NCBI GenBank assembly: GCA_027031765.1 | Contig: JALVPN010000179.1 | Location: 1 to 10,073, forward strand | Length of the DNA: 10,073 nt | Source of the DNA: Promethearchaeota archaeon | GTDB lineage: Archaea > Asgardarchaeota > Thorarchaeia > Thorarchaeales > Thorarchaeaceae | Direction of reading: 5' to 3' | Part shown: positions 180 to 10,073 of the stretch, in pieces | Numbering within the stretch: the first letter of the stretch is position 1 | How the letters are laid out: each line of letters begins with the position of its first letter | The notes under the pieces: model-generated | What the model was told of the DNA's origin: nothing | The model's input: only the letters and a program-made list of their open reading frames with translations | Database searches by the model: none | Translations under genes and position numbers: made by a program

Positions 180-1658
180 TCACGGGTTGTATGCGAACGG
201 GTGACGGGCCGAGTCGCGCCGGGCGACAATCTCGTCAACGGTCTGTCGGCCCTCTATGGCACGTCTAAGCGCATGCCGTACGGCACGGAAGTTGTTGATG
301 TACACCCGACGTGGGTTGTTCGCGTTGGGGTGCACGAAGGCATTGACCACCACGACTATGTCGTCCAGGAGTTCTTCAGGGAGGATGCCATCGGTGATGG
401 TCCGCCGTACGGCGTCAGCAACAGCATGCTGGGCCACATCATAGACGAGGTGCCTGTGGCGCTCATGGGTGATCGTTACTGTGGAGGCGAAGACGACCGT
501 CACCTCGAGGTCCTTTACGAGGTTGCAGGAGTGGTGCCCCTCAGTGGTCTTGCCAACAATGTCGAGAGCGGCCTGGACGGGGCCGTCCTTGATGCCGAGC
601 ACCAGGTCTACATGTGCCACCTCCTGGCCCTCACCGCACAGCGACTCGCCATGCAGGAGGGTGAGGTCGGGGACCTCGTCTGGGACGAGACCGACAGCCT
701 TCGGGTACGACTCTGCCACCACGTACTTGTCACCCATGCGGTACCTCACGGGCCCACGTGGTATCAGGCGCAGGTCTTCCAGGCACGTGCGCAGCTCGTC
801 CAGGTCTTCATACCTGAACGAGTCACCACAGAGGAGGGGTCTGCGGGCATCGCCAACAGGCACACCCATCATGTTGAGGGCTGCCTTTACTGCGAGGCCG
901 CCACCCTTGTTGACGATGATACGCACCGCCTTCTGGATGCTGCGCTGGACTATCAGGGCCTCCTTCAGGTCGCCGCGAGCAAGTGCGGCCTGCATCTTGA
1001 TGTAGCGGTCGGGGAACACGTTCGCACTGGCAAGGACTGCCCCGTCGCAACCAGCAGCAAAGGCTGGTAGTGCGACCTCGTCGTGGCCGATGACCACCTG
1101 GAACCCTTCAGGCCTCCGGACAAGGATGGTCGTCAGGTTGACGAGGTTGCCACTGGAGTCCTTCATGCCCGCAATGCCATCAATCTCGCGGAGGCCGTCC
1201 ACAAGCCACCAGTCGAGGTTCACACCTGTGACCTGGGGGATGTTGTATACGAATACGGGCAGGCTACTTGCATTTGCGACGCGCTCGTAGTGCTCGTAGA
1301 TCTCCTTTGTTGTGGGCCGCAGGAAGTACGGTGTCACGACCAGCACCGCACTGGCACCGAGCTCTGCTGCACGGCGCGTGAGCTTGACAGCATCGCCGGT
1401 GTAGGCCGCGCCCGTGCCAGCGAGGACAGGCACACGCCCCTTTGCGGCCTCACAGGCAATACGGATTGCCTCCACCTTCTCGTCGAACGTCATGCTGGTG
1501 AACTCGCCGGTGGTACCGCATGGGACAATGCCGGTGGCGCCAGCATGGATGACATGGTCAATGAGCCCCCGGTACTGCTCCTCGTCGACGCCGTCTTCAT
1601 TGAACGGTGTGACGAGCGCCGGGTAGACACCTTTGAACTTGAACTGTTTCTCAGCCAT
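180..1658 (-). CDS. dapA: DapA/DHDPS-family class I aldolase fused to a C-terminal formaldehyde-activating enzyme (Fae) domain (paralogue A, ~492 aa)
   Basis: N-terminal ~300 aa carry DapA-family motifs PALVTPF, GTTGEF, GRVPVLAGTG, YNIP and the Schiff-base Lys in MKDSSG (codon 1161-1163). The C-terminal ~160 aa (approx. 180-660) match Fae: GESLCGEGQEVAHVDL, AQHAVADAV, DGILP, FVHP, ARHPF. Start placed at ATG 1658, 3 nt after SD GGGGGTGAT (1670-1662); ATG 1661 is an alternative, and the ORF-track start 1733 overlaps the upstream gene. The symbol is family-level only; true DHDPS activity is doubtful. Confidence 0.9.
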   Translation of the reverse strand: MAEKQFKFKGVYPALVTPFNEDGVDEEQYRGLIDHVIHAGATGIVPCGTTGEFTSMTFDEKVEAIRIACEAAKGRVPVLAGTGAAYTGDAVKLTRRAAELGASAVLVVTPYFLRPTTKEIYEHYERVANASSLPVFVYNIPQVTGVNLDWWLVDGLREIDGIAGMKDSSGNLVNLTTILVRRPEGFQVVIGHDEVALPAFAAGCDGAVLASANVFPDRYIKMQAALARGDLKEALIVQRSIQKAVRIIVNKGGGLAVKAALNMMGVPVGDARRPLLCGDSFRYEDLDELRTCLEDLRLIPRGPVRYRMGDKYVVAESYPKAVGLVPDEVPDLTLLHGESLCGEGQEVAHVDLVLGIKDGPVQAALDIVGKTTEGHHSCNLVKDLEVTVVFASTVTITHERHRHLVYDVAQHAVADAVRRTITDGILPEELLDDIVVVVNAFVHPNANNPRRVYINNFRAVRHALRRAIEGRQTVDEIVARRDSARHPFAYNP

Positions 1659-1661
1659 CAT

Positions 1662-1670
1662 ATCACCCCC
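1662..1670 (-). promoter_or_regulatory. Shine-Dalgarno site GGGGGTGAT containing the upstream gene's TGA stop
   Basis: Minus strand reads TGG GGG TGA T ATG ATG, an 8/9 match to the archaeal consensus GGAGGTGAT. Confidence 0.7.
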
Positions 1671-3063
1671 AGACCTGCGCCAACGCCTCACCAACGGCCT
1701 GTTCGGCGGCACGGGTGACCGCGCGTCGGTCATGCTCGTTCAGGTCGACATCCATCACCATGACCATCACTTCAGAGTGAACGGCACCAGCCGGTATCTT
1801 GCCAGCAGAGAGAGCAGACGCCACTGCCCGGGCGGCACCGGACTGGACCGGGCCATAGAACAGCGATGCCTGGCGCATGGACTTGATCCTCCGTGCCGGC
1901 AACATCAGGCTGCTCGGTCGGACGGGCAGGTTCGGCTCAAGGATCACAGTGAGTGCTTCATGCCCCACACGTGGTGCAGCGAGGAGCCTGACGAATGCCC
2001 GTCCCAGTGGCCCGCTCTTTGGGCCGGCTGCCAGCACCACAGAGACCGTGTCGTTGGATGCCCGGCCGGTACGGAGCCCTTCGATGGCCGCATCATCAAG
2101 ACCACAGTCGTAGAGGGTCTTGCTTATGTCTATATCCGACTTGACAGGCGGGCGCTCAAGCCCCCCGATGAGGCCCAGACGTCCGAGCTCAAGGCGCACC
2201 TCTTCTCGGAGCTCACGAGTAAGGGTACCGCCCGAGTCGAGGGGCATCCTCGGGTACCCTGCGTGGACTCCCATCATCCGGAGGGCGGCCTTGACCGGGG
2301 GCGCCCCACCGTTCCTCGTTATTATGCGCGACAGCGTCTGGACAGAGAGCTGCAGACGCCGTGCCTCCTCAATCTCCCCCTTGCGGACATGCTCCATTAT
2401 CTCCAACCAGACATGTGGGATGACGTTCGCAGAGGCGAGGATGGCTGCACTGGCACCAGCAGCGACAGCCGACAGGAAACACTCGTCGTGACCGATGAGC
2501 ACCGGCATCTTGTGGCCCACTTTCTGGATTAGTTCGAGAGTGTGTGGGATGTTGCCACTGCTGTCCTTTATAGCAACGATGTTGTCCAGCCCCGCGAGGT
2601 CTTCCACGACGTTTGACTGGAGTATGCCGAGGGTACACTGTGGGATGTTGTACATTATTACGGGCAGGTCCCCCTGCCGTGCGACTGTCGCGTAGTGTTC
2701 GTAGTAGCCCTTGTCAGTGGGACGCAGGTAGAATGGGGAGATGACGAGGGCCGCATCACAACCGATGTCAGCAGCGTACTTTGTCAGGGCGACCGTGGCC
2801 CTAGTGCTGTTCTGACCGGTACCAGCGACCACCGGCACGCGCCCGTCAACGAACTCGACGGCAAGACGCAGGACACGCTTCCGCTCCTCAGTACGCATGT
2901 ACACGAACTCGCCCGTCGTACCACACGGGACGACACCCGTTGCCCCCTTCTCTATCACGTAGTCAATGACCTCTCTGAACCCGTCCTCAAGCACATCACC
3001 GTCCTTGGTGAAGGGTGTCACGAGAGCAGGCATTACACCTGTCGGGACGAACCTCTTTGCCAT
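1663..3063 (-). CDS. dapA: DapA/DHDPS-family class I aldolase fused to a degenerate Fae-like domain (paralogue B, ~466 aa)
   Basis: Motifs PALVTPF, GTTGEF, GRVPVVAGTG, YNIP and IKDSSG (Lys codon 2566-2568). The C-terminal region (approx. 1663-2075) has Fae-like GPKSGP..AF, PNLPVRP, GPVQSGAARAV and GKIP, but no AHxD and no terminal HPF. Start set at ATG 3063 (MAKRF) because it aligns with paralogue A's start and lies ~40 nt below a BRE/TATA; the 3252 start lies upstream of that promoter. The symbol is family-level only. Confidence 0.9.
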   Translation of the reverse strand: MAKRFVPTGVMPALVTPFTKDGDVLEDGFREVIDYVIEKGATGVVPCGTTGEFVYMRTEERKRVLRLAVEFVDGRVPVVAGTGQNSTRATVALTKYAADIGCDAALVISPFYLRPTDKGYYEHYATVARQGDLPVIMYNIPQCTLGILQSNVVEDLAGLDNIVAIKDSSGNIPHTLELIQKVGHKMPVLIGHDECFLSAVAAGASAAILASANVIPHVWLEIMEHVRKGEIEEARRLQLSVQTLSRIITRNGGAPPVKAALRMMGVHAGYPRMPLDSGGTLTRELREEVRLELGRLGLIGGLERPPVKSDIDISKTLYDCGLDDAAIEGLRTGRASNDTVSVVLAAGPKSGPLGRAFVRLLAAPRVGHEALTVILEPNLPVRPSSLMLPARRIKSMRQASLFYGPVQSGAARAVASALSAGKIPAGAVHSEVMVMVMDVDLNEHDRRAVTRAAEQAVGEALAQVWG

Positions 3064-3101
3064 CGCGGGACACCAGCAGGGAGTGCAGCCCGCCCCCATC
3101 G

Positions 3102-3116
3102 TATTTAAGTTTCGGC
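3102..3116 (-). promoter_or_regulatory. Archaeal BRE + TATA box of the aldolase-Fae operon
   Basis: Minus strand reads GCCGAAAC-TTAAATA-C: a purine-rich BRE directly followed by an AT-rich box in otherwise GC-rich DNA, ~40 nt upstream of ATG 3063. Confidence 0.7.
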
Positions 3117-3344
3117 GTCCCGAGGACCAACAGGGGGGCGTACTCGCAGGGCCCACGGGTGCCACATGCAGCAGTATGTGGAGGCCCTGCACAGATAGCA
3201 CCGGTTGTGTACTGGAAACGCCACTGACATGTCCTGACCTCAGCGCTGACACTGTGTCCGGGCACTAGTGTGTGGTCGCGCTGACACCGCCGTGTCGGAC
3301 TCCCGGACACCCGCCATGACGCGCCGGGGCAGCGGCCGCACCCC

Positions 3345-3374: not shown

Positions 3375-3683
3375 ATGACCGAGTTCATCGTTGTACTGGC
3401 GACAGCACCGGAGGCCGAGGCCGAGAGGATAGCGCGGGCCCTAGTAGAACGCGGTCTGTGTGCCTGTGTGAACATCATTGGTGGTGTGAGCAGCATCTAC
3501 CGCTGGAAGGGGTCCATAGAGTCTGGTGCAGAGGCTGTACTCCTGATGAAGACAACGGCAGCCCTTCAGGAGCATCTCTACGAGGCACTCCGTGGACTCC
3601 ACCCGTATGAGGTCCCAGAGTTCATAGTGCTCCCAATAGTCGGTGGCAGCGACGAGTACCTCAACTGGTTGCGCGGCGAATAG
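3375..3683 (+). CDS. cutA: Divalent-cation tolerance protein CutA
   Basis: 102 aa with the family motifs LVERGLCACVNI, SIYRWKG, LLMKT, HPYEVPE and Y(L)NW. Confidence 0.95.
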   Translation: MTEFIVVLATAPEAEAERIARALVERGLCACVNIIGGVSSIYRWKGSIESGAEAVLLMKTTAALQEHLYEALRGLHPYEVPEFIVLPIVGGSDEYLNWLRGE

Positions 3684-3703: not shown

Positions 3704-6154
3704 TCACGCTATGCCAGCGCCCCGGGCTGCATACCGCAACGACTCGTTGAAGTACTTCCCGACGACCGCCGCAATCGCAGGCCCGACCACACGGTCAATG
3801 TCGCCGGCCATCATAGCACGGAGGTCAGCGCGGGGTGACAGCTTGCCACGCCGTTTCAGGTGGCCAATCTCCCGCTGGACTATTGAGCGGGCCTCTTCAA
3901 TGCGCATGGCCTCTGCAGACGTCCCGATCAGGCCACGCTTGATTGCAGTTATGGCGTCCATCACGAAGACAGCCAAGTTGTCGAGGTCGTCTGACGTCTT
4001 CATGTTGGCAGCACCATGTCGTGGACAGCTCTCTCCCGACGGAGCGGCACCACACAGTGTGCAGACCCTTCGCCCACGGTTGGAACGTACGTAGTATGAC
4101 AGGAGGTTGGCGCACTTGATGCTGTCATTGGGCCCCCACTCAAGGCCACGACTGCCCACACGCCCCACTGCCTTGAACGCCGTTGTGGCCTTCGTATGAA
4201 TCCACGAGACAACATCGATCATCCTGCGTTTCCGGTCGATGACTGCGCGTCCCTGCAGCTGGAGTTCGGCAGCCTCCTCCTCTTTCTTCATCTTCTTCTG
4301 GCGCTCGCGTTGCAGGAACCTGTGCATGATGTCGTATGCAATGGCATAGTTGTCAAACTCAAGGCCGTCGAGCCTGAGCGGGGCGTCCACAATGCCCTCG
4401 AACACGGGGCTCGGAGTACGCCTGAGCTCCTCCTTTGCAGAGTCCATGTCTGTGCCACTGAGGCGCGCGTGCATCCACGTACAAATAGTGGGTGCATCGA
4501 GGTCGGGCAGGACACACTTCGCCTCATATATGCGCCTTGATGCGAGGTCTATGAGTATCTCCTCCCGGAGGCTCTGTAGCCGGGGCTCAGTGTCCTCATA
4601 GATGCTCTTCAGCAGTGCCTTCATCCGCAGCAGGTCATTTTTCGACCGGATGTACATCTCGACAATACGGGTGAGGTTTGTGAGCAGCCCGGTAGTGAGG
4701 TGCCAGACAATGTCAAGGCGCAGTGCCAAGAGGCTCTCCTTCGTGCGCCGCTGCAGGCCCATCTCACCCGACGTCGTGGCCACGGCCCCGAGCTCACCGC
4801 TCTCGACCCGCCTGCGCACTTCCAGCAGGTGCACGACCTCTTCTGGAGGCGGCACCCGCATCTTCTTCTTGAGCTCTTCGAGGACCTGCACCTCAACACC
4901 GATGAGCGACTCCGGCGGCCGTGTGAGGACCTCTATGGTGACCTTGTCCAGTTCCGAGGCCCGCATGCCCCGTGCACGGAGGGCACCCTTGACAGGCTTC
5001 TCAAGAGCGCGTTCGAGCTTCTCAAGAGTGCGGAGGGAGCGTTCAATCTGGTCCAGCTCCGCCTGTGTGAGTGCGGGGCCGCCTGCTCCACCGGTCTCGA
5101 CCTGTCCCTCCTCGGCGACCTCCAATAGGCCACGGGCCAGCTGTTCACCATCGTCCAAGCCGGCCTGCCTCAGGCCCTTCCGCACTGTGTCCGGGGCAAG
5201 ACCGAGCAGGTGGGCGAGGAGCTCGGCTGCGTGCTGAGGGTCATCGAGTATCATACTACCGACCTCGCGTGCCATGGTACGTGCCATGCGGGCCTCGTAC
5301 TCCTCAAGCGTGGCAGGGCTCTCGAACTCCATCTGAAGGGCCTCCAGCAGCGAGAGTCGGAGTGCGTGGGCACGACGGATCACCGGGATATGCCTGGGCT
5401 CGACAAGGAGGCGTCGTGCCGTGTACTTTGCAATCACGGCCCAGACCTCCTCAGAGACCGGGGCGTGGAGCAGGCGGCCCCGGGGATACTCTAGACGCCC
5501 GAATATACGTTTCAGGGCCCGCTTGAGCACGGAGACCTCGATGACCTCGTACTCGTGCTCGCGCAGGAGTTCGTCACGCAGCGAGAGGGCCGACTCCTTC
5601 AGGCCCGACGCCCGTTCGTATAGCTCCCGGCGCCAATCGTCGCCCCACCCCGTCACCTGGACGACGAAGTCGACGTCCATTATGGGACCGTAGTCGCTCG
5701 GGATCTCAGCAAGGTGCTCACGTACGAGCTCGTCAGTCCTGTGCAGGACATCTGGGTCGTACGGGTCACCGTTGCCGAGCTCGTCACAGAAGCGGACCGT
5801 GAACTCGCTCACCAGACGCGCGATGTCAATCTCCTCGGTCAACCTGGTACCGAGGAACTGTCTACACTCGAGCTCCAGTTGACGGCGTTCCTCAGCAGCC
5901 ACATCGTCGTGTCCCTCTGTGGGCTGAGTGAACGCGGTCTCTGTGCTCTGCAGCCGGATACCACTGTAGTGGTACAGGTAGAAGCTGGCGAAGGACGAGA
6001 GTATGTCCTCGAACGGACGTGGCTCGCCTAGGATGGACGCAAGGGTAGTCCGGTCACGACTACTGCGCATATGGTTGACCAGTGCCTCCCGTAGTAGGAT
6101 TTCCTTGCCGGCCTCACTCATCTGACGGGTCCTCAAGACCCATGCCCGTGACAT
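3704..6154 (-). CDS. Large uncharacterised alpha-helical protein (816 aa) with a C-terminal CxxC-x8-CxxH Zn-finger motif
   Basis: 2.4 kb ORF with normal globular/helical composition. ATG 6154 is preceded by SD GGGGTGA plus 4 nt, overlapping the upstream stop. No family recognised. Confidence 0.85.
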   Translation of the reverse strand: MSRAWVLRTRQMSEAGKEILLREALVNHMRSSRDRTTLASILGEPRPFEDILSSFASFYLYHYSGIRLQSTETAFTQPTEGHDDVAAEERRQLELECRQFLGTRLTEEIDIARLVSEFTVRFCDELGNGDPYDPDVLHRTDELVREHLAEIPSDYGPIMDVDFVVQVTGWGDDWRRELYERASGLKESALSLRDELLREHEYEVIEVSVLKRALKRIFGRLEYPRGRLLHAPVSEEVWAVIAKYTARRLLVEPRHIPVIRRAHALRLSLLEALQMEFESPATLEEYEARMARTMAREVGSMILDDPQHAAELLAHLLGLAPDTVRKGLRQAGLDDGEQLARGLLEVAEEGQVETGGAGGPALTQAELDQIERSLRTLEKLERALEKPVKGALRARGMRASELDKVTIEVLTRPPESLIGVEVQVLEELKKKMRVPPPEEVVHLLEVRRRVESGELGAVATTSGEMGLQRRTKESLLALRLDIVWHLTTGLLTNLTRIVEMYIRSKNDLLRMKALLKSIYEDTEPRLQSLREEILIDLASRRIYEAKCVLPDLDAPTICTWMHARLSGTDMDSAKEELRRTPSPVFEGIVDAPLRLDGLEFDNYAIAYDIMHRFLQRERQKKMKKEEEAAELQLQGRAVIDRKRRMIDVVSWIHTKATTAFKAVGRVGSRGLEWGPNDSIKCANLLSYYVRSNRGRRVCTLCGAAPSGESCPRHGAANMKTSDDLDNLAVFVMDAITAIKRGLIGTSAEAMRIEEARSIVQREIGHLKRRGKLSPRADLRAMMAGDIDRVVGPAIAAVVGKYFNESLRYAARGAGIA

Positions 6155-6170
6155 CTCCTCACCCCACCTC
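6155..6170 (-). promoter_or_regulatory. Shine-Dalgarno region GAGGTGGGGTGAGGAG containing the upstream stop codon
   Basis: Minus strand reads GAG GTG GGG TGA GGAG ATG. Confidence 0.65.
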
Positions 6171-8753
6171 CGTGTTGCCAGCCCTGACCGTAAGGGTGTC
6201 GCCAGACAGTTCGTACGTCACAAGGCGCAGCAGGCCCGGCCGTTCGGGACGACGCAGGTACACGGCCACAGGGCGTGGCATCACACGGCTGAAAGCCCGG
6301 GCCATCGTGTCGAGCACATGCTCTACAAAGCCATCAAGGTCCGGGTCATGGGTGCCGGACATATCCGTGGCGCCCCCTGCGACCTGTGCAAGACGCCCAT
6401 TCAGGTCGTTGTACATCTCCCTGTACGCGGACTCCATCTCGGCGATGGTCTCGCTCATGACACGGTGCAGGTGTTCGTATACCCGCAGGTCTTTTGATGG
6501 GGTCGGGCGCGGTGGCGGTGGCACTTCATGGCGCAGTGGGAACTCTGACTCCACTGGCGCAAGGTACTCGGACAGGGGCGGCGGGGGAGTAGGTGGTGAC
6601 TCGTCCGGTCTGAGGAGGGCCTGTGCTCTCCTCTGCTCATAGTCAGCAAGCGCAGACTGGTACCGTGCCGTGTCAACCTCATGACGAATCCTTGCATCCG
6701 ACAGTTGCCGTTCGCGCTCCTCATTGTGTTTCCGCACCCGCAAATTCTCGGCCTCGACCTCACGGCACCGCTGCTCCCACGCCGCAACCTGCTGGTCGTA
6801 GTCGGCCTTCAGCGAATGGTATGCCGACGTGATGCGTCCAACTGTGTCGACAGCACGGTGACCACGCACCTTTGAGTGCACGAAGCGCACCAGTTCGATG
6901 AGCACCTGTGAGAGCGGTGCCCCACCCCCAACAGACGACTTGATGCACGATGCGAACTCCCGGAGCCAGTGTCGGGCCTCCTGCTTCCACGCATCATCAC
7001 GCTCCGCGTTCTCAACTGCCCGCTCAAGTGCCGCGAGAGGGCTCAGACCATTCTCACGTGATCTCTGCACAATCCAGTCGATGGTGCGCGTGGAAACGAG
7101 GGAGTCTGCAAGATCGGGCACTATCTCGCTCACCGTCCTCACTGTATAGTCCAAGAGCTTCATGGCCGCCACGTCCTCTGGCGACGGACTGTCAGACCCA
7201 TCAGCAGGTGCTTGGAGGCGGGCCCCGACAAGCTCGTGGAGGTCCTGCGGGCCGACCATGTCCCAGATACTGCCCCGGCCGACCCTATCGACCATCTCCC
7301 GTGCCACATGGGCCGCTGCAGACGCGGGGCTCTCGTGGGAAACACCTGTATAGGACATCTGGTCAAAGATTGCATTGAGCTGGGCATACGCGTCCCGCGT
7401 GTACCTCTCAAGGACAAGGCGGGCTGCTGGTGTGAGCTCGCGGGACTCCTCAGTTTCTGCAAAGTCGCGTATGACGGACAGGCACAGATGTCGTGCAGAG
7501 TGTATGAACACATATTGGGCGAGGCGGCCAATCAGGTACTCGCTGACGCGCCGGGCATACGCGACAAAGTAGTGGAGTGTGGCCTTGAGCCTCCAGGCGC
7601 GGATCTCGACACCTGTCCCGAACTCGCGCTTGAGGGCTGCTGTCGCCTGCTGGACGAGGGACGTGAACATGGGACGACGGGGGCCCCTGAACCGTTCGGG
7701 GTACATGTCCATGAACTCAAGTAGGGCCTGATGGTGGCCGTCAAGTGAAAGAACCTCTCCAGACCGTACGTGGGCCTCCACCGCGTCCGCCAGCGCACCG
7801 ACCACCTCCTCCAGCGTGTCACCGAAGGTGTGGGCAGCACTGGTCAGCCGGCCACGTTCGTGCAGTGGCGTACCCGCACTGGCAAGCTGCTGTTGGAGCA
7901 GCTCGACCACGGTCCGCAAGATGTCGGCCTCCTCAATACTATACGCGTAGACGTTCAGCTCTCCAATGACTGCACGGCCGAGCTCCGGGACTCGATATAC
8001 CAACGTGTGGAGACCGGTCGGTGTGAGGACCATGCCCCGCAGGAGTCCCAAGGCCGACTCCTCATCACCAGCAGGTGGGAGCGAGAACTCGACCGACTCG
8101 ACCGCCCCCTGTGGGAGGACTGCAGCAGGCAGTGTCGTGAAGTCGGGCGTGGCCGGTACCATCACTTCCGTGTCTGGCGGGACGTCCGCCGAACGGATGT
8201 GCAGCGAGTCCCACGAGCCCTGGAACTGGCGGTCCACCATGTCCACGAATAGGACGCTGTTCAGCCGGTCGTTGAACCTCTGGAGGACGCGCAACCCCTG
8301 TGACTCATAGTCGAGTCCATTGTTCACCGTGGCCTGCTCGATGTCCGCGAGCTTCTTGGCGAGTGTGTGGATGTACTCGTCAATCTTGAACGGGTCGACC
8401 AGCCCACGCTCCCAGCTCACCACCGAAACGTGTACGTGTACGTCGCCAGACCGACCGCCAGCGACCACGAGCTGTTCTGGCAGCACCTCTGAGCTAGAGG
8501 CCCTGTCAAGGTCCCAGATTATGGCAAGGATCTCGTAGCCATCTCGCTCCCTGATGCTCTTGCGCACCTCTGACACAAGAGGTGTAACGCCCATCGCCAC
8601 GGAGCTCGAGTTGTGTTCCATCATCGTGCCGCATCCCAGGGCGCTCCCAATGGGATGCCCCTTGCTGGTGGTGGTGCCCAAGATAGCGGCGGATGCCATC
8701 TGGATGGCCTCAACTGTGCTCGGTGTGTCACCCCTAGACTTGCCTGCAGCCAT
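6159..8753 (-). CDS. Large uncharacterised protein (~810-890 aa) with a long heptad helix and polyproline tract
   Basis: 2.6 kb ORF, no family recognised. The stop is firm but the start is uncertain. ATG 8753 has SD-like GTGAGGA 8 nt upstream and GC-rich third positions downstream of it; alternatives are GTG 8831, ATG 8699 and ATG 8594 (MGVTPL, where clearly globular sequence begins). Confidence 0.8.
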   Translation of the reverse strand: MAAGKSRGDTPSTVEAIQMASAAILGTTTSKGHPIGSALGCGTMMEHNSSSVAMGVTPLVSEVRKSIRERDGYEILAIIWDLDRASSSEVLPEQLVVAGGRSGDVHVHVSVVSWERGLVDPFKIDEYIHTLAKKLADIEQATVNNGLDYESQGLRVLQRFNDRLNSVLFVDMVDRQFQGSWDSLHIRSADVPPDTEVMVPATPDFTTLPAAVLPQGAVESVEFSLPPAGDEESALGLLRGMVLTPTGLHTLVYRVPELGRAVIGELNVYAYSIEEADILRTVVELLQQQLASAGTPLHERGRLTSAAHTFGDTLEEVVGALADAVEAHVRSGEVLSLDGHHQALLEFMDMYPERFRGPRRPMFTSLVQQATAALKREFGTGVEIRAWRLKATLHYFVAYARRVSEYLIGRLAQYVFIHSARHLCLSVIRDFAETEESRELTPAARLVLERYTRDAYAQLNAIFDQMSYTGVSHESPASAAAHVAREMVDRVGRGSIWDMVGPQDLHELVGARLQAPADGSDSPSPEDVAAMKLLDYTVRTVSEIVPDLADSLVSTRTIDWIVQRSRENGLSPLAALERAVENAERDDAWKQEARHWLREFASCIKSSVGGGAPLSQVLIELVRFVHSKVRGHRAVDTVGRITSAYHSLKADYDQQVAAWEQRCREVEAENLRVRKHNEERERQLSDARIRHEVDTARYQSALADYEQRRAQALLRPDESPPTPPPPLSEYLAPVESEFPLRHEVPPPPRPTPSKDLRVYEHLHRVMSETIAEMESAYREMYNDLNGRLAQVAGGATDMSGTHDPDLDGFVEHVLDTMARAFSRVMPRPVAVYLRRPERPGLLRLVTYELSGDTLTVRAGNTEVG

Positions 8754-8840
8754 TGTGCGGATCCTCACGGGCGATGGTCTGTGGACAACGGGACAGACTG
8801 TCACCGTCCAATATGGCGGCCTAATGTGCACCGTTTCTTT

Positions 8841-9815
8841 TCAATATAGCTGAGAGAAGTCCCCGTCGCCACTGATTGGTGACCACACTCCATCAAGGTC
8901 ATGGGTCACCAGGCCTGCCATTTTGAGGAAGTGCAGTGATACCTCCACAGTTGTTGGTAGGAGGCACTCCAGGCATGTCGGGTGGGGGACACTCCCTGAC
9001 TCACGGATGTCGTGTACGACCTGCTCGGTGCTCGCATGCTTCCTAGCGACGACATGGTTGAGGACAGCGTCCTCGAATGCCAGCAGGGCGTCGGAGGCCT
9101 GTTCGAGAGCAAGACGGGCCTTGTCACCGAGCCAGGCCACATCGTGTGCAGGCAGCAGGTACTCGACGTCCAGCTTGGAGAGCTCGTCAAGGGCTTCCAG
9201 CCGGGCCGGTATGCTGCCAGACAGGTCAAAGTAGAAGAGCTCGGGTCGGTTCGGAAACCCCACCACTTCATCCCCCGCGAGGAGGATGCCTGCTTCCTCC
9301 TCATAGAACACACAGTGACCGGCCGAGTGGCCGCCCGTGTGGATCACGGTCAGACGCATGTCGCCGAGGTTGATCAGTGCTTGGTCTTCAAGCGTCCCGT
9401 CAGGGACCACACTGGGAAACCTCACGCTGAACGGGCCCTTTGAGAGGTACAGGCCGACCTGTTCTAGTAGGCCCGTACGCAGGCGGGACTTGAAAGATGC
9501 CGGGTCTGAGAGGAGCATGGCATCGCGTTCGTGTACCATCACTGTTGCGGATGTCACACTCTTCACCTGCGCGACGCCACCCACATGGTCAGGATGACCA
9601 TGGGTACACAGGATGAACCTGACATCCTCGGCGGGCTCGTAGCCGACCTCGCGGATGGCATCGACTATCGCGGGCCCGGGGTCGTTGTGCAGCCCCGGGT
9701 CAACAACCGCAACACCCTCGGCCCCTGCCACAACATAGGAGGTGAGATACCCCATCTCTTCGTAATACTGCCCTCTCACTGCATAAACAGAGGGCGCCAC
9801 CTCTGTCACAGCCAT
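8841..9815 (-). CDS. MBL-fold metallo-hydrolase (glyoxalase II/LACTB2-like) with a probable C-terminal helical/winged-helix extension, ~324 aa
   Basis: Motifs VVDPG, HGHPDH (HxHxDH, 9585-9602), TGGHSAGH, AGDEV and LLPAH. Start at ATG 9815 (MAVTEVAPSVYAV) gives the typical MBL N-terminus and lies ~28 nt below a TATA box. Confidence 0.92.
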   Translation of the reverse strand: MAVTEVAPSVYAVRGQYYEEMGYLTSYVVAGAEGVAVVDPGLHNDPGPAIVDAIREVGYEPAEDVRFILCTHGHPDHVGGVAQVKSVTSATVMVHERDAMLLSDPASFKSRLRTGLLEQVGLYLSKGPFSVRFPSVVPDGTLEDQALINLGDMRLTVIHTGGHSAGHCVFYEEEAGILLAGDEVVGFPNRPELFYFDLSGSIPARLEALDELSKLDVEYLLPAHDVAWLGDKARLALEQASDALLAFEDAVLNHVVARKHASTEQVVHDIRESGSVPHPTCLECLLPTTVEVSLHFLKMAGLVTHDLDGVWSPISGDGDFSQLY

Positions 9816-9839
9816 TGCAAGGAACGTCCTACCGCCCGG

Positions 9840-9846
9840 CTTAATA
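9840..9846 (-). promoter_or_regulatory. TATA box (TATTAAG) for the MBL gene, probably leaderless transcript
   Basis: The only AT-rich box in the region, centred ~28 nt upstream of ATG 9815. No SD before the ATG. Confidence 0.6.
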
Positions 9847-10073
9847 CAGTATCGATGGACTCCTGTGGAGGCGCGGCGGACGCACCTGCAGTAGGGTGGG
9901 GGACTCACGCAGGACGGCACAACGTAGAGGGTACAGTGCCCGGGCGCCATATCTGGGGCCTCTCTGGCGCCGTCACACCAGCAACGTGGAGGGGGTACTT
10001 CCAGACGGACACACCCGGGCTGGTGCGGGGGGTCGTGGTGGTTCGTGAAGCACCGGAGGGCTTGCGCCCTGGC

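Follow-up and report, generated by a model that had tools for sequence, protein, structure and literature searches.

Canonical Fae, the formaldehyde-activating enzyme, stands alone as a homo-oligomer whose subunits each carry all the motifs of the family, as in Methylorubrum extorquens (1Y5Y/1Y60). In methanogens and many Asgard archaea it also occurs as Fae-Hps, where its fusion partner is a TIM-barrel enzyme of aldolase type (Hps, 3-hexulose-6-phosphate synthase) that makes or uses formaldehyde, giving a bifunctional protein with a presumed hand-over of formaldehyde. A different fusion is found on contig JALVPN010000179.1 of a Promethearchaeota archaeon (GCA_027031765.1; a hydrothermal-vent metagenome assembly of 2.95 Mb, 95% complete), the whole of which, 10,073 nucleotides, was analysed here as the window. 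It has two adjacent genes, B and A, each coding for a class I aldolase of the DHDPS (DapA) family joined to a Fae domain, and the close relatives of both proteins carry the label Thorarchaeota. The fusion combines known parts in a new way and is a real, widespread and unstudied system with a well-supported architecture. Its aldolases are supported by sequence features as something other than lysine-pathway DapA, and the Fae domains of A and B hold complementary halves of the canonical motif set. No paper describing a DapA-Fae fusion was found in a literature search, in keeping with an earlier note on this DNA, to whose author no characterised example was known.

Against Pfam, gene A matched DHDPS with an E-value of 1.5e-72 (ORF residues 32-302) and Fae with 4.1e-33 (residues 362-513), while gene B gave 1.5e-75 and 1.1e-24, its Fae match covering profile positions 14-137 at most. 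All four scores lie far above the curated cut-offs, which excludes chance matches. The earlier note had seen a DapA-family barrel joined to Fae in both genes and this was confirmed, including for the C-terminal domains, which it had allowed might fail the Fae models. The NCBIfam model one_C_fae (TIGR03126, cut-off 118) is passed by A (128.7 bits) and not by B (78.1 bits), A being a full-length member of the family and B one in part only. With the Fae-Hps model NF009833 only the Fae part was matched (positions 4-161 of 392), at scores of 88.9 and 61.1 bits where the cut-off is 274. The second domain of both proteins is DHDPS, and neither belongs to Fae-Hps.

The two Fae domains differ in what they have kept. 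That of A possesses GESL..EVAHVDL, FVHP and ARHPF and lacks the LEPN..KP loop and GPAQ (YDVAQ instead). It aligns with the M. extorquens enzyme over residues 8-168 of 169, including GEAL..EVAHIDL and the HPFA tail. The Fae domain of B keeps GHEAL..LEPNLPVRP and FYGPVQ, can be aligned with that enzyme in the central PNLP.KP and FGPAQ region alone, and is without the histidine motif EVAH(I/V)DL (NDTVSVVL instead), FVHP and the ARHPF tail. The histidine of this motif (His22) is reported to be the catalytic residue (2005 Fae structure paper). Unlike canonical Fae, neither protein thus has all Fae motifs in one polypeptide. The single-copy fusions of eight Asgard families and of Bathyarchaeia retain every motif, at 168-208 bits. 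Alignment showed that the PNL loop and GPAQ are lost in A-type proteins, and the histidine motif and tail in B-type proteins, with FVHP also missing in some lineages, including the studied genome. Since the single-copy relatives are complete and A and B are complementary halves, an A/B heteromer seems likely, or at least plausible. The pterin site of Fae is said, in the same 2005 paper, to lie between neighbouring subunits, and if so only the A-B interface would be complete; the split site would then clearly illustrate how an active site at an interface can be subfunctionalised. The two genes had been taken for equivalent fusions, a view that did not hold, as their Fae domains point to one heteromeric enzyme.

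Alternatively, A and B might be independent homo-oligomeric enzymes whose functions diverged after duplication, the motif pattern then reflecting relaxed selection on a redundant domain. This would agree with the intact aldolase Lys/Tyr/Thr set of both proteins and with their identity of only about 38%, but it fits poorly with the way in which the genes travel together. A B-type gene lies directly upstream of all 13 A-type genes with enough flanking sequence, bacteria included, the two being 0-18 nt apart or overlapping at stop and start. This order is strict in archaea and bacteria, no A-type gene was seen without a B-type gene, and the same half is retained in each pair. In a maximum-likelihood tree the A-type proteins form a single clade (support 99/98) that is paired across phyla throughout, which makes the duplication old. 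Exactly two Fae matches were present in 37 of the 40 Fae-positive Thorarchaeota-family genomes. In the window the stop codon of B precedes the start of A by 1 nt, with GGGGG just upstream of the stop, so that the two form an operon whose junction fits translational coupling. Two independent enzymes are accordingly regarded as quite improbable, and we continue to favour the heteromer.

Both genes pass the NCBI dapA model TIGR00674, narrowly (A 228.9 and B 223.9 bits, cut-off 206.15), and for this reason more than 100 orthologue clusters bear the database name dapA, just as the earlier note had expected of automatic annotation. One or both could accordingly be a true DapA (4-hydroxy-tetrahydrodipicolinate synthase) of lysine synthesis that bears an accessory domain. 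Among solved structures the nearest are indeed DapA enzymes (closest by sequence that of Methanocaldococcus jannaschii, 171 bits), A and B are the sole DHDPS-family genes of the host genome, and the fold is shared, as are the Schiff-base lysine (E. coli K161), Tyr133 and Thr44/45, found in A and B within KDSSG (MKDSSG in A), YNIP and GTTGEF respectively. These residues, however, mark the entire DHDPS/NAL superfamily and not DapA specifically. In our alignment of 22 fusions and four stand-alone Asgard DapA proteins, the catalytic lysine and tyrosine are present in all 22 fusions (variants being GSTGEF in three, YQ(I/L)P in two and KCSWG in one), but the signatures around them differ. The fusions have GTTGEF, YNIP-x-[CVLA], KDSSG and G-x-DE where stand-alone DapA has GTTGE[SA], YNVP-x-R, K[CA]ASG and GDD. 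The position of Arg138 (E. coli numbering), the residue of DHDPS that binds aspartate semialdehyde, is valine in A (YNIPQVTG), cysteine in B (YNIPQCTL) and Cys, Val, Leu or Ala in 22 of 22 fusions, in contrast to Arg in four of four stand-alone proteins. At the position of Tyr107, gene A has Phe (TPYFLRP). The GxDE motif was also considered as a sialic-acid-lyase signature; this was dropped, as the sequence of the M. jannaschii DapA structure reads GNDE too.

The genomic context likewise argues against a role in lysine synthesis. Stand-alone DapA forms a clade of its own on a separate long branch of the tree (support 100/100). The 95%-complete host genome lacks dapB and any Semialdhyde_dhC domain (asd/argC-type), and hence both the asd supply and the dapB use of the product that a DapA would have, so that a diaminopimelate pathway is missing. 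For the wider picture 201 Asgard genomes of 27 families (labelled f1 to f27 below) were surveyed. No dapB was detected in the 43 genomes of the Thorarchaeota family, and clear dapB genes were confined to families f9 and f24, with matches below the cut-off in f20. In five dapB-bearing genomes of f9 and f24 a separate dapA of approximately 300 aa adjoins dapB (once together with asd), and the fusion of approximately 500 aa lies elsewhere, which answers the earlier suggestion to look for a canonical dapA besides the fusion. A lysine-pathway DapA in either gene is therefore very improbable and already largely refuted.

The system was at first described as one of two genes, which leaves out a conserved third. 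Clustering of the genes around the fusion yielded one recurrent partner in two forms, c1 (~315 aa) and c2 (~427 aa, an N-terminal helical part with the same barrel as c1). Of 59 fusion loci, c2 is nearby in 26 and c1 in 11 (together 37, from many phyla), and no other neighbour recurred across phyla among these loci. When contexts were picked by c1 alone, the fusion was located just downstream in four of eight, and on one Anaerolineae contig c2, B and A all lie on one strand. Each form is 60-80% identical across phyla, and the two are mutually exclusive among Asgard families, f16 being split (3/5 versus 2/5). No match to c1 or c2 was found in Pfam or NCBIfam. In its predicted structure (pLDDT 91.6) the barrel of c2 best matches predicted 'U32-peptidase-like' bacterial clusters (TM 0.75), the same clusters matched by c1 in its sequence features. 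A Foldseek search of c2 against the PDB returned only weak generic TIM-barrel matches, and VIA-align gave CutC (Z 11.9), U32 peptidase (Z 11.2) and many tied barrels, which indicates no function. On these models c1/c2 appears to be an uncharacterised U32-like TIM-barrel protein, abundant and highly conserved. When c2 and a single-copy fusion (a Loki-type pair) were modelled as a complex, the prediction scored 0.00, which weighs neither way.

In the host, c2 follows directly behind the gene for an ECF-type riboflavin-transporter S-component on contig C120 (Table 1) and is divergent from a 499-aa pyridoxal-phosphate (PLP) enzyme with a PadR-like winged helix (region 6433-10045). By coordinates this c2/thrC-like neighbourhood occurs in at least 14 Thorarchaeota genomes, and no threonine-synthase-like or ECF S-component genes adjoining c2 were found in other phyla. 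A transketolase gene is likewise located on contig C120. On one Anaerolineae-labelled contig (L026, 3703-4554) c1 sits directly upstream of PanB (ketopantoate hydroxymethyltransferase), another enzyme that adds a pterin-borne one-carbon (C1) unit to a 2-oxo acid.

Fae matches were present in 40 of the 43 Thorarchaeota-family genomes, these being solely the two weak ones of A and B, and no Fae-Hps-type match was found there. Other Asgard families possess a 220-240-bit Fae in a frame of ~400-460 aa, assigned by size alone to the Fae-Hps range, and often a second one in a frame of ~500 aa; all 12 of the ~500-aa frames fetched were DHDPS-Fae fusions. When species-representative genomes were searched with the fusion junction region, full-length fusions were identified in Bathyarchaeia, Loki-type Promethearchaeota, Borrarchaeum, Sifarchaeum, Odinarchaeota, Methanofastidiosia and Undinarchaeales. 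Homologous B-A pairs also occur in bacteria, namely in Anaerolineae and other Chloroflexota, Spirochaetota and one Sandaracinaceae genome (Myxococcota), so the fusion is not purely archaeal.

The distribution in Asgard archaea follows that of tetrahydromethanopterin (H4MPT). Mch, a marker of this cofactor, is encoded in the host genome (372.6 bits), in line with the proposed link of the host to H4MPT, and across the Asgard genomes the Fae and Mch tallies nearly coincide by family. At this level the fusion occurs exactly where Mch and either c1 or c2 are both found, that is in f1, f8, f9, f12, f13, f16, f18, f21, f24 and f27. Families f5, f22 and f25 have c2 without Mch or Fae, and f3, f4, f7, f10, f15 and f19 combine Mch with the shorter Fae frame and have neither fusion nor c1/c2, f19 showing one weak c1-like match (39% identity).

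Taken together, A and B may be the subunits of one heteromeric, bifunctional enzyme, distinct from DapA, that interconverts a 4-hydroxy-2-oxo acid with pyruvate and formaldehyde carried on H4MPT, a reading to which we give an even chance. Each subunit would contribute a pyruvate-type aldolase barrel with a Schiff-base lysine (class I) and a Fae-type domain, A providing the face with the catalytic histidine and the C-terminal tail, and B the PNL loop and the GP(V/A)Q face, so that a complete pterin/formaldehyde site would form solely at the A-B interface. Formaldehyde would be passed to, or taken from, H4MPT as methylene-H4MPT. The net reaction would be a reversible hydroxymethyl transfer between pterin and 2-oxo acid, similar to those of PanB and serine hydroxymethyltransferase but with different folds. 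The likeliest acid would be 4-hydroxy-2-oxobutanoate (HOB), the keto acid of homoserine, with either direction conceivable, and the enzyme would work alongside the U32-like TIM-barrel protein, c2 in this host.

The Fae-like domains could instead be non-catalytic, serving for oligomerisation or regulation or binding another ligand, attached to a real aldolase that uses an aldehyde such as glyoxylate, glycolaldehyde or a semialdehyde. The bacteria speak for this, as five genomes with B-A pairs from Anaerolineae, Chloroflexota and Sandaracinaceae, of unreported completeness, have Mch in none and Ftr in one. The pair there cannot serve the known H4MPT pathway and must have another carrier (possibly tetrahydrofolate) or another role. 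The co-occurrence with H4MPT that the earlier note wished to see examined is borne out in Asgard archaea, and the five bacterial genomes bear on its condition that hosts without the pathway would tell against a strict dependence on the cofactor. The score of the B domain below the NCBIfam cut-off and the loss of canonical motifs from each paralogue point the same way. Non-catalytic domains would nevertheless leave unexplained why the single-copy fusions are complete, why A and B have lost parts that complement each other and are not random, as expected for one composite site, and why the Asgard fusion is confined to families with Mch. A small uncharged aldehyde would also be suited by the small hydrophobic residue that takes the place of Arg138. 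A non-catalytic role is thus unlikely, and the catalytic heteromer is kept as the working reading.

As to the substrate, a fusion of aldolase and Fae suggests formaldehyde as the aldehyde, and with it a pyruvate Schiff-base aldolase would give HOB, which is a reasonable guess from the chemistry and the gene neighbourhood. The one setting in which the literature knows HOB is the engineered homoserine cycle, where it is a non-native intermediate: pyruvate and formaldehyde are joined to HOB and this is transaminated to homoserine (PMC8879981). Indirect support for HOB comes from families f5 and f22, in which no Fae, Mch or asd-type gene was found. In seven of eight loci of these families c2 heads an operon that continues with genes for an aminotransferase of class I/II, for homoserine dehydrogenase (415 bits, cut-off 373) and for an aldehyde:ferredoxin oxidoreductase (AOR). 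This suggests that the alternative partners of c2 act on homoserine-level C4 compounds and aldehydes, and may point to a path by which AOR helps to connect aspartate, its semialdehyde and homoserine without aspartate kinase or Asd. Oligopeptide ABC-transporter genes lie near the c2 operon in three of the eight loci. The fusion may then be a natural, dedicated HOB hydroxymethyltransferase, joining methylene-H4MPT of the archaeal Wood-Ljungdahl pathway to pyruvate to give a C4 keto acid for transamination to homoserine, or perhaps returning homoserine carbon to the C1 pool. This remains tentative, and we think it clearly less probable than its contrary.

Two further roles were considered and rejected. 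The fusion as an H4MPT-dependent replacement of PanB is contradicted by a canonical PanB in 28 of 31 Thorarchaeota-family genomes, the host included. For c1/c2 as the missing homoserine kinase there is no support, as f4, f7, f15, f17, f19 and f20 have thrC-type genes without thrB or c1/c2, and f24 and f27 have c2 without a thrC match. In all, thrB was detected in only four of the 27 Asgard families and thrC-type genes in most.

Several points weigh against the proposed enzyme and its homoserine link, besides the five bacterial genomes already mentioned. The link to homoserine is indirect. A recognisable homoserine kinase was not found in Thorarchaeota, with no thrB match above the cut-off and an ApgM-like match below that of the proposed homoserine kinase. 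The PLP-PadR protein next to c2 passes the threonine-synthase models only narrowly, and homoserine dehydrogenase was identified in two of 31 Thorarchaeota-family genomes, so that an anabolic route from HOB through homoserine to threonine is unsupported in this group. The reciprocal Tyr107/Phe pattern that the A and B aldolase halves show in the window is inconsistent between species. The presence of c2 in the fusion-free families f5, f22 and f25, and its location on a separate contig in the host, indicate that its coupling to the fusion is not obligatory. The composite site also leans on the reported position of the pterin site between subunits. Finally, what was observed is the architecture, the operon, the absence of features specific to DapA, the complementarity of the motifs, the conserved partner and the Asgard co-occurrence with H4MPT; from these we infer that A and B form a heteromer, and likewise its chemistry with formaldehyde, its substrate, the reaction direction and the part played by c1/c2.

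The coordinates of the pair and its surroundings are collected in Table 1. The two long minus-strand ORFs of the window span 180-3252. That of B covers 1663-3252, with the start set at the ATG at 3063 to match the 466-aa orthologue on a complete Thorarchaeota chromosome (L005). That of A covers 180-1733 with the likely start at the ATG at 1658, or else 1661. The database form of A (P0006) has 492 aa and its syntenic orthologue on L005 491 aa. The range of 180-3063 given earlier for the pair is thus correct by ORF, start and synteny.

Table 1. Positions of the B-A pair, its domains and neighbouring features in the window, and of c2 and the gene before it elsewhere in the host genome.
Feature	Position	Strand	Remarks
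Gene B	1663-3063	-	466 aa; DHDPS-family aldolase + partial Fae; upstream cistron
B aldolase (TIM-barrel) domain	2206-3042	-	PF00701, 255.9 bits
B Fae-like domain	1675-2043	-	PF08714, about 87.7-91.3 bits
Gene A	180-1658	-	492 aa (493 with ATG at 1661); DHDPS-family aldolase + full-length Fae; downstream cistron
A aldolase (TIM-barrel) domain	828-1640	-	PF00701, 246.2 bits
A Fae domain	195-650	-	PF08714, about 115-118.1 bits (Pfam cut-off 27); profile positions 2-158
B/A junction	1656-1670	-	GGGGG, TGA of B (1665-1663), 1 nt, ATG ATG of A; read directly from the sequence
TTAAATA, candidate archaeal TATA box	3102-3108	-	Its centre lies 42 nt before the start codon of B; read directly from the sequence, putative
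Small ORF, CutA1-type	3375-3683	+	L005 orthologue annotated CutA1 (PF03091)
Two large proteins behind MBL-fold hydrolase gene	3704-6154, 6159-8831, 8841-9950	all -	816 and about 867-890 aa
c2 of the host genome	contig C120 (L019) 8750-10045	+	
ECF-type riboflavin-transporter S-component gene	contig C120 8017-8619	+	Directly before c2

The CutA1-type gene, on the opposite strand, stands between the B-A pair and the genes further upstream. The order of the metallo-beta-lactamase (MBL)-fold hydrolase and the two large proteins is likewise present upstream of the pair on L005. No Pfam or NCBIfam family was found for either large protein, and the 816-aa one has a CxxC...CPxH stretch around residue 690.

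Hundreds of database entries name these proteins DapA, implying a lysine pathway that most of the hosts lack, an error that is carried over when the metabolism of Asgard archaea and Bathyarchaeia is reconstructed. Should the proposed chemistry prove right, the fusion would provide a new C-C bond-forming step by which carbon leaves or enters the H4MPT branch of the Wood-Ljungdahl pathway, in hosts that are central to ideas on the origin of eukaryotes and to sediment carbon cycling. Together with c1/c2 it would give Asgard archaea, Bathyarchaeia and some anaerobic bacteria an unrecognised bypass of aspartate kinase and aspartate-semialdehyde dehydrogenase, and would be the natural counterpart to the engineered homoserine cycle. 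Synthetic methylotrophy, which for this step now has promiscuous aldolases only, would also gain a natural enzyme.

Compared with the known systems, the fusion shares with DapA the fold and the catalytic residues, and differs from it in the missing Arg138, the other signature motifs, the added Fae domain and a host without the diaminopimelate pathway. Like Fae-Hps it is hosted by H4MPT-using archaea. However, the partner in Fae-Hps is Hps, with the orotidine-monophosphate-decarboxylase fold, in place of a class I pyruvate aldolase of the DHDPS family; Fae is N-terminal there and C-terminal in A and B; and in the Thorarchaeota lineage the Fae site is split across two paralogous subunits. The resemblance to PanB and serine hydroxymethyltransferase would be one of function only, formaldehyde-level C1 being moved between a reduced pterin and a carbanion that adjoins a carbonyl or imine, whereas folds and mechanisms are unrelated and the host has its own PanB. 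The chemistry proposed for A/B is identical to that of the HOB aldolase of the synthetic homoserine cycle, E. coli RhmA. The latter is a promiscuous class II metal aldolase acting on free formaldehyde, while A/B would be a class I enzyme dedicated to this reaction and working with a pterin carrier.

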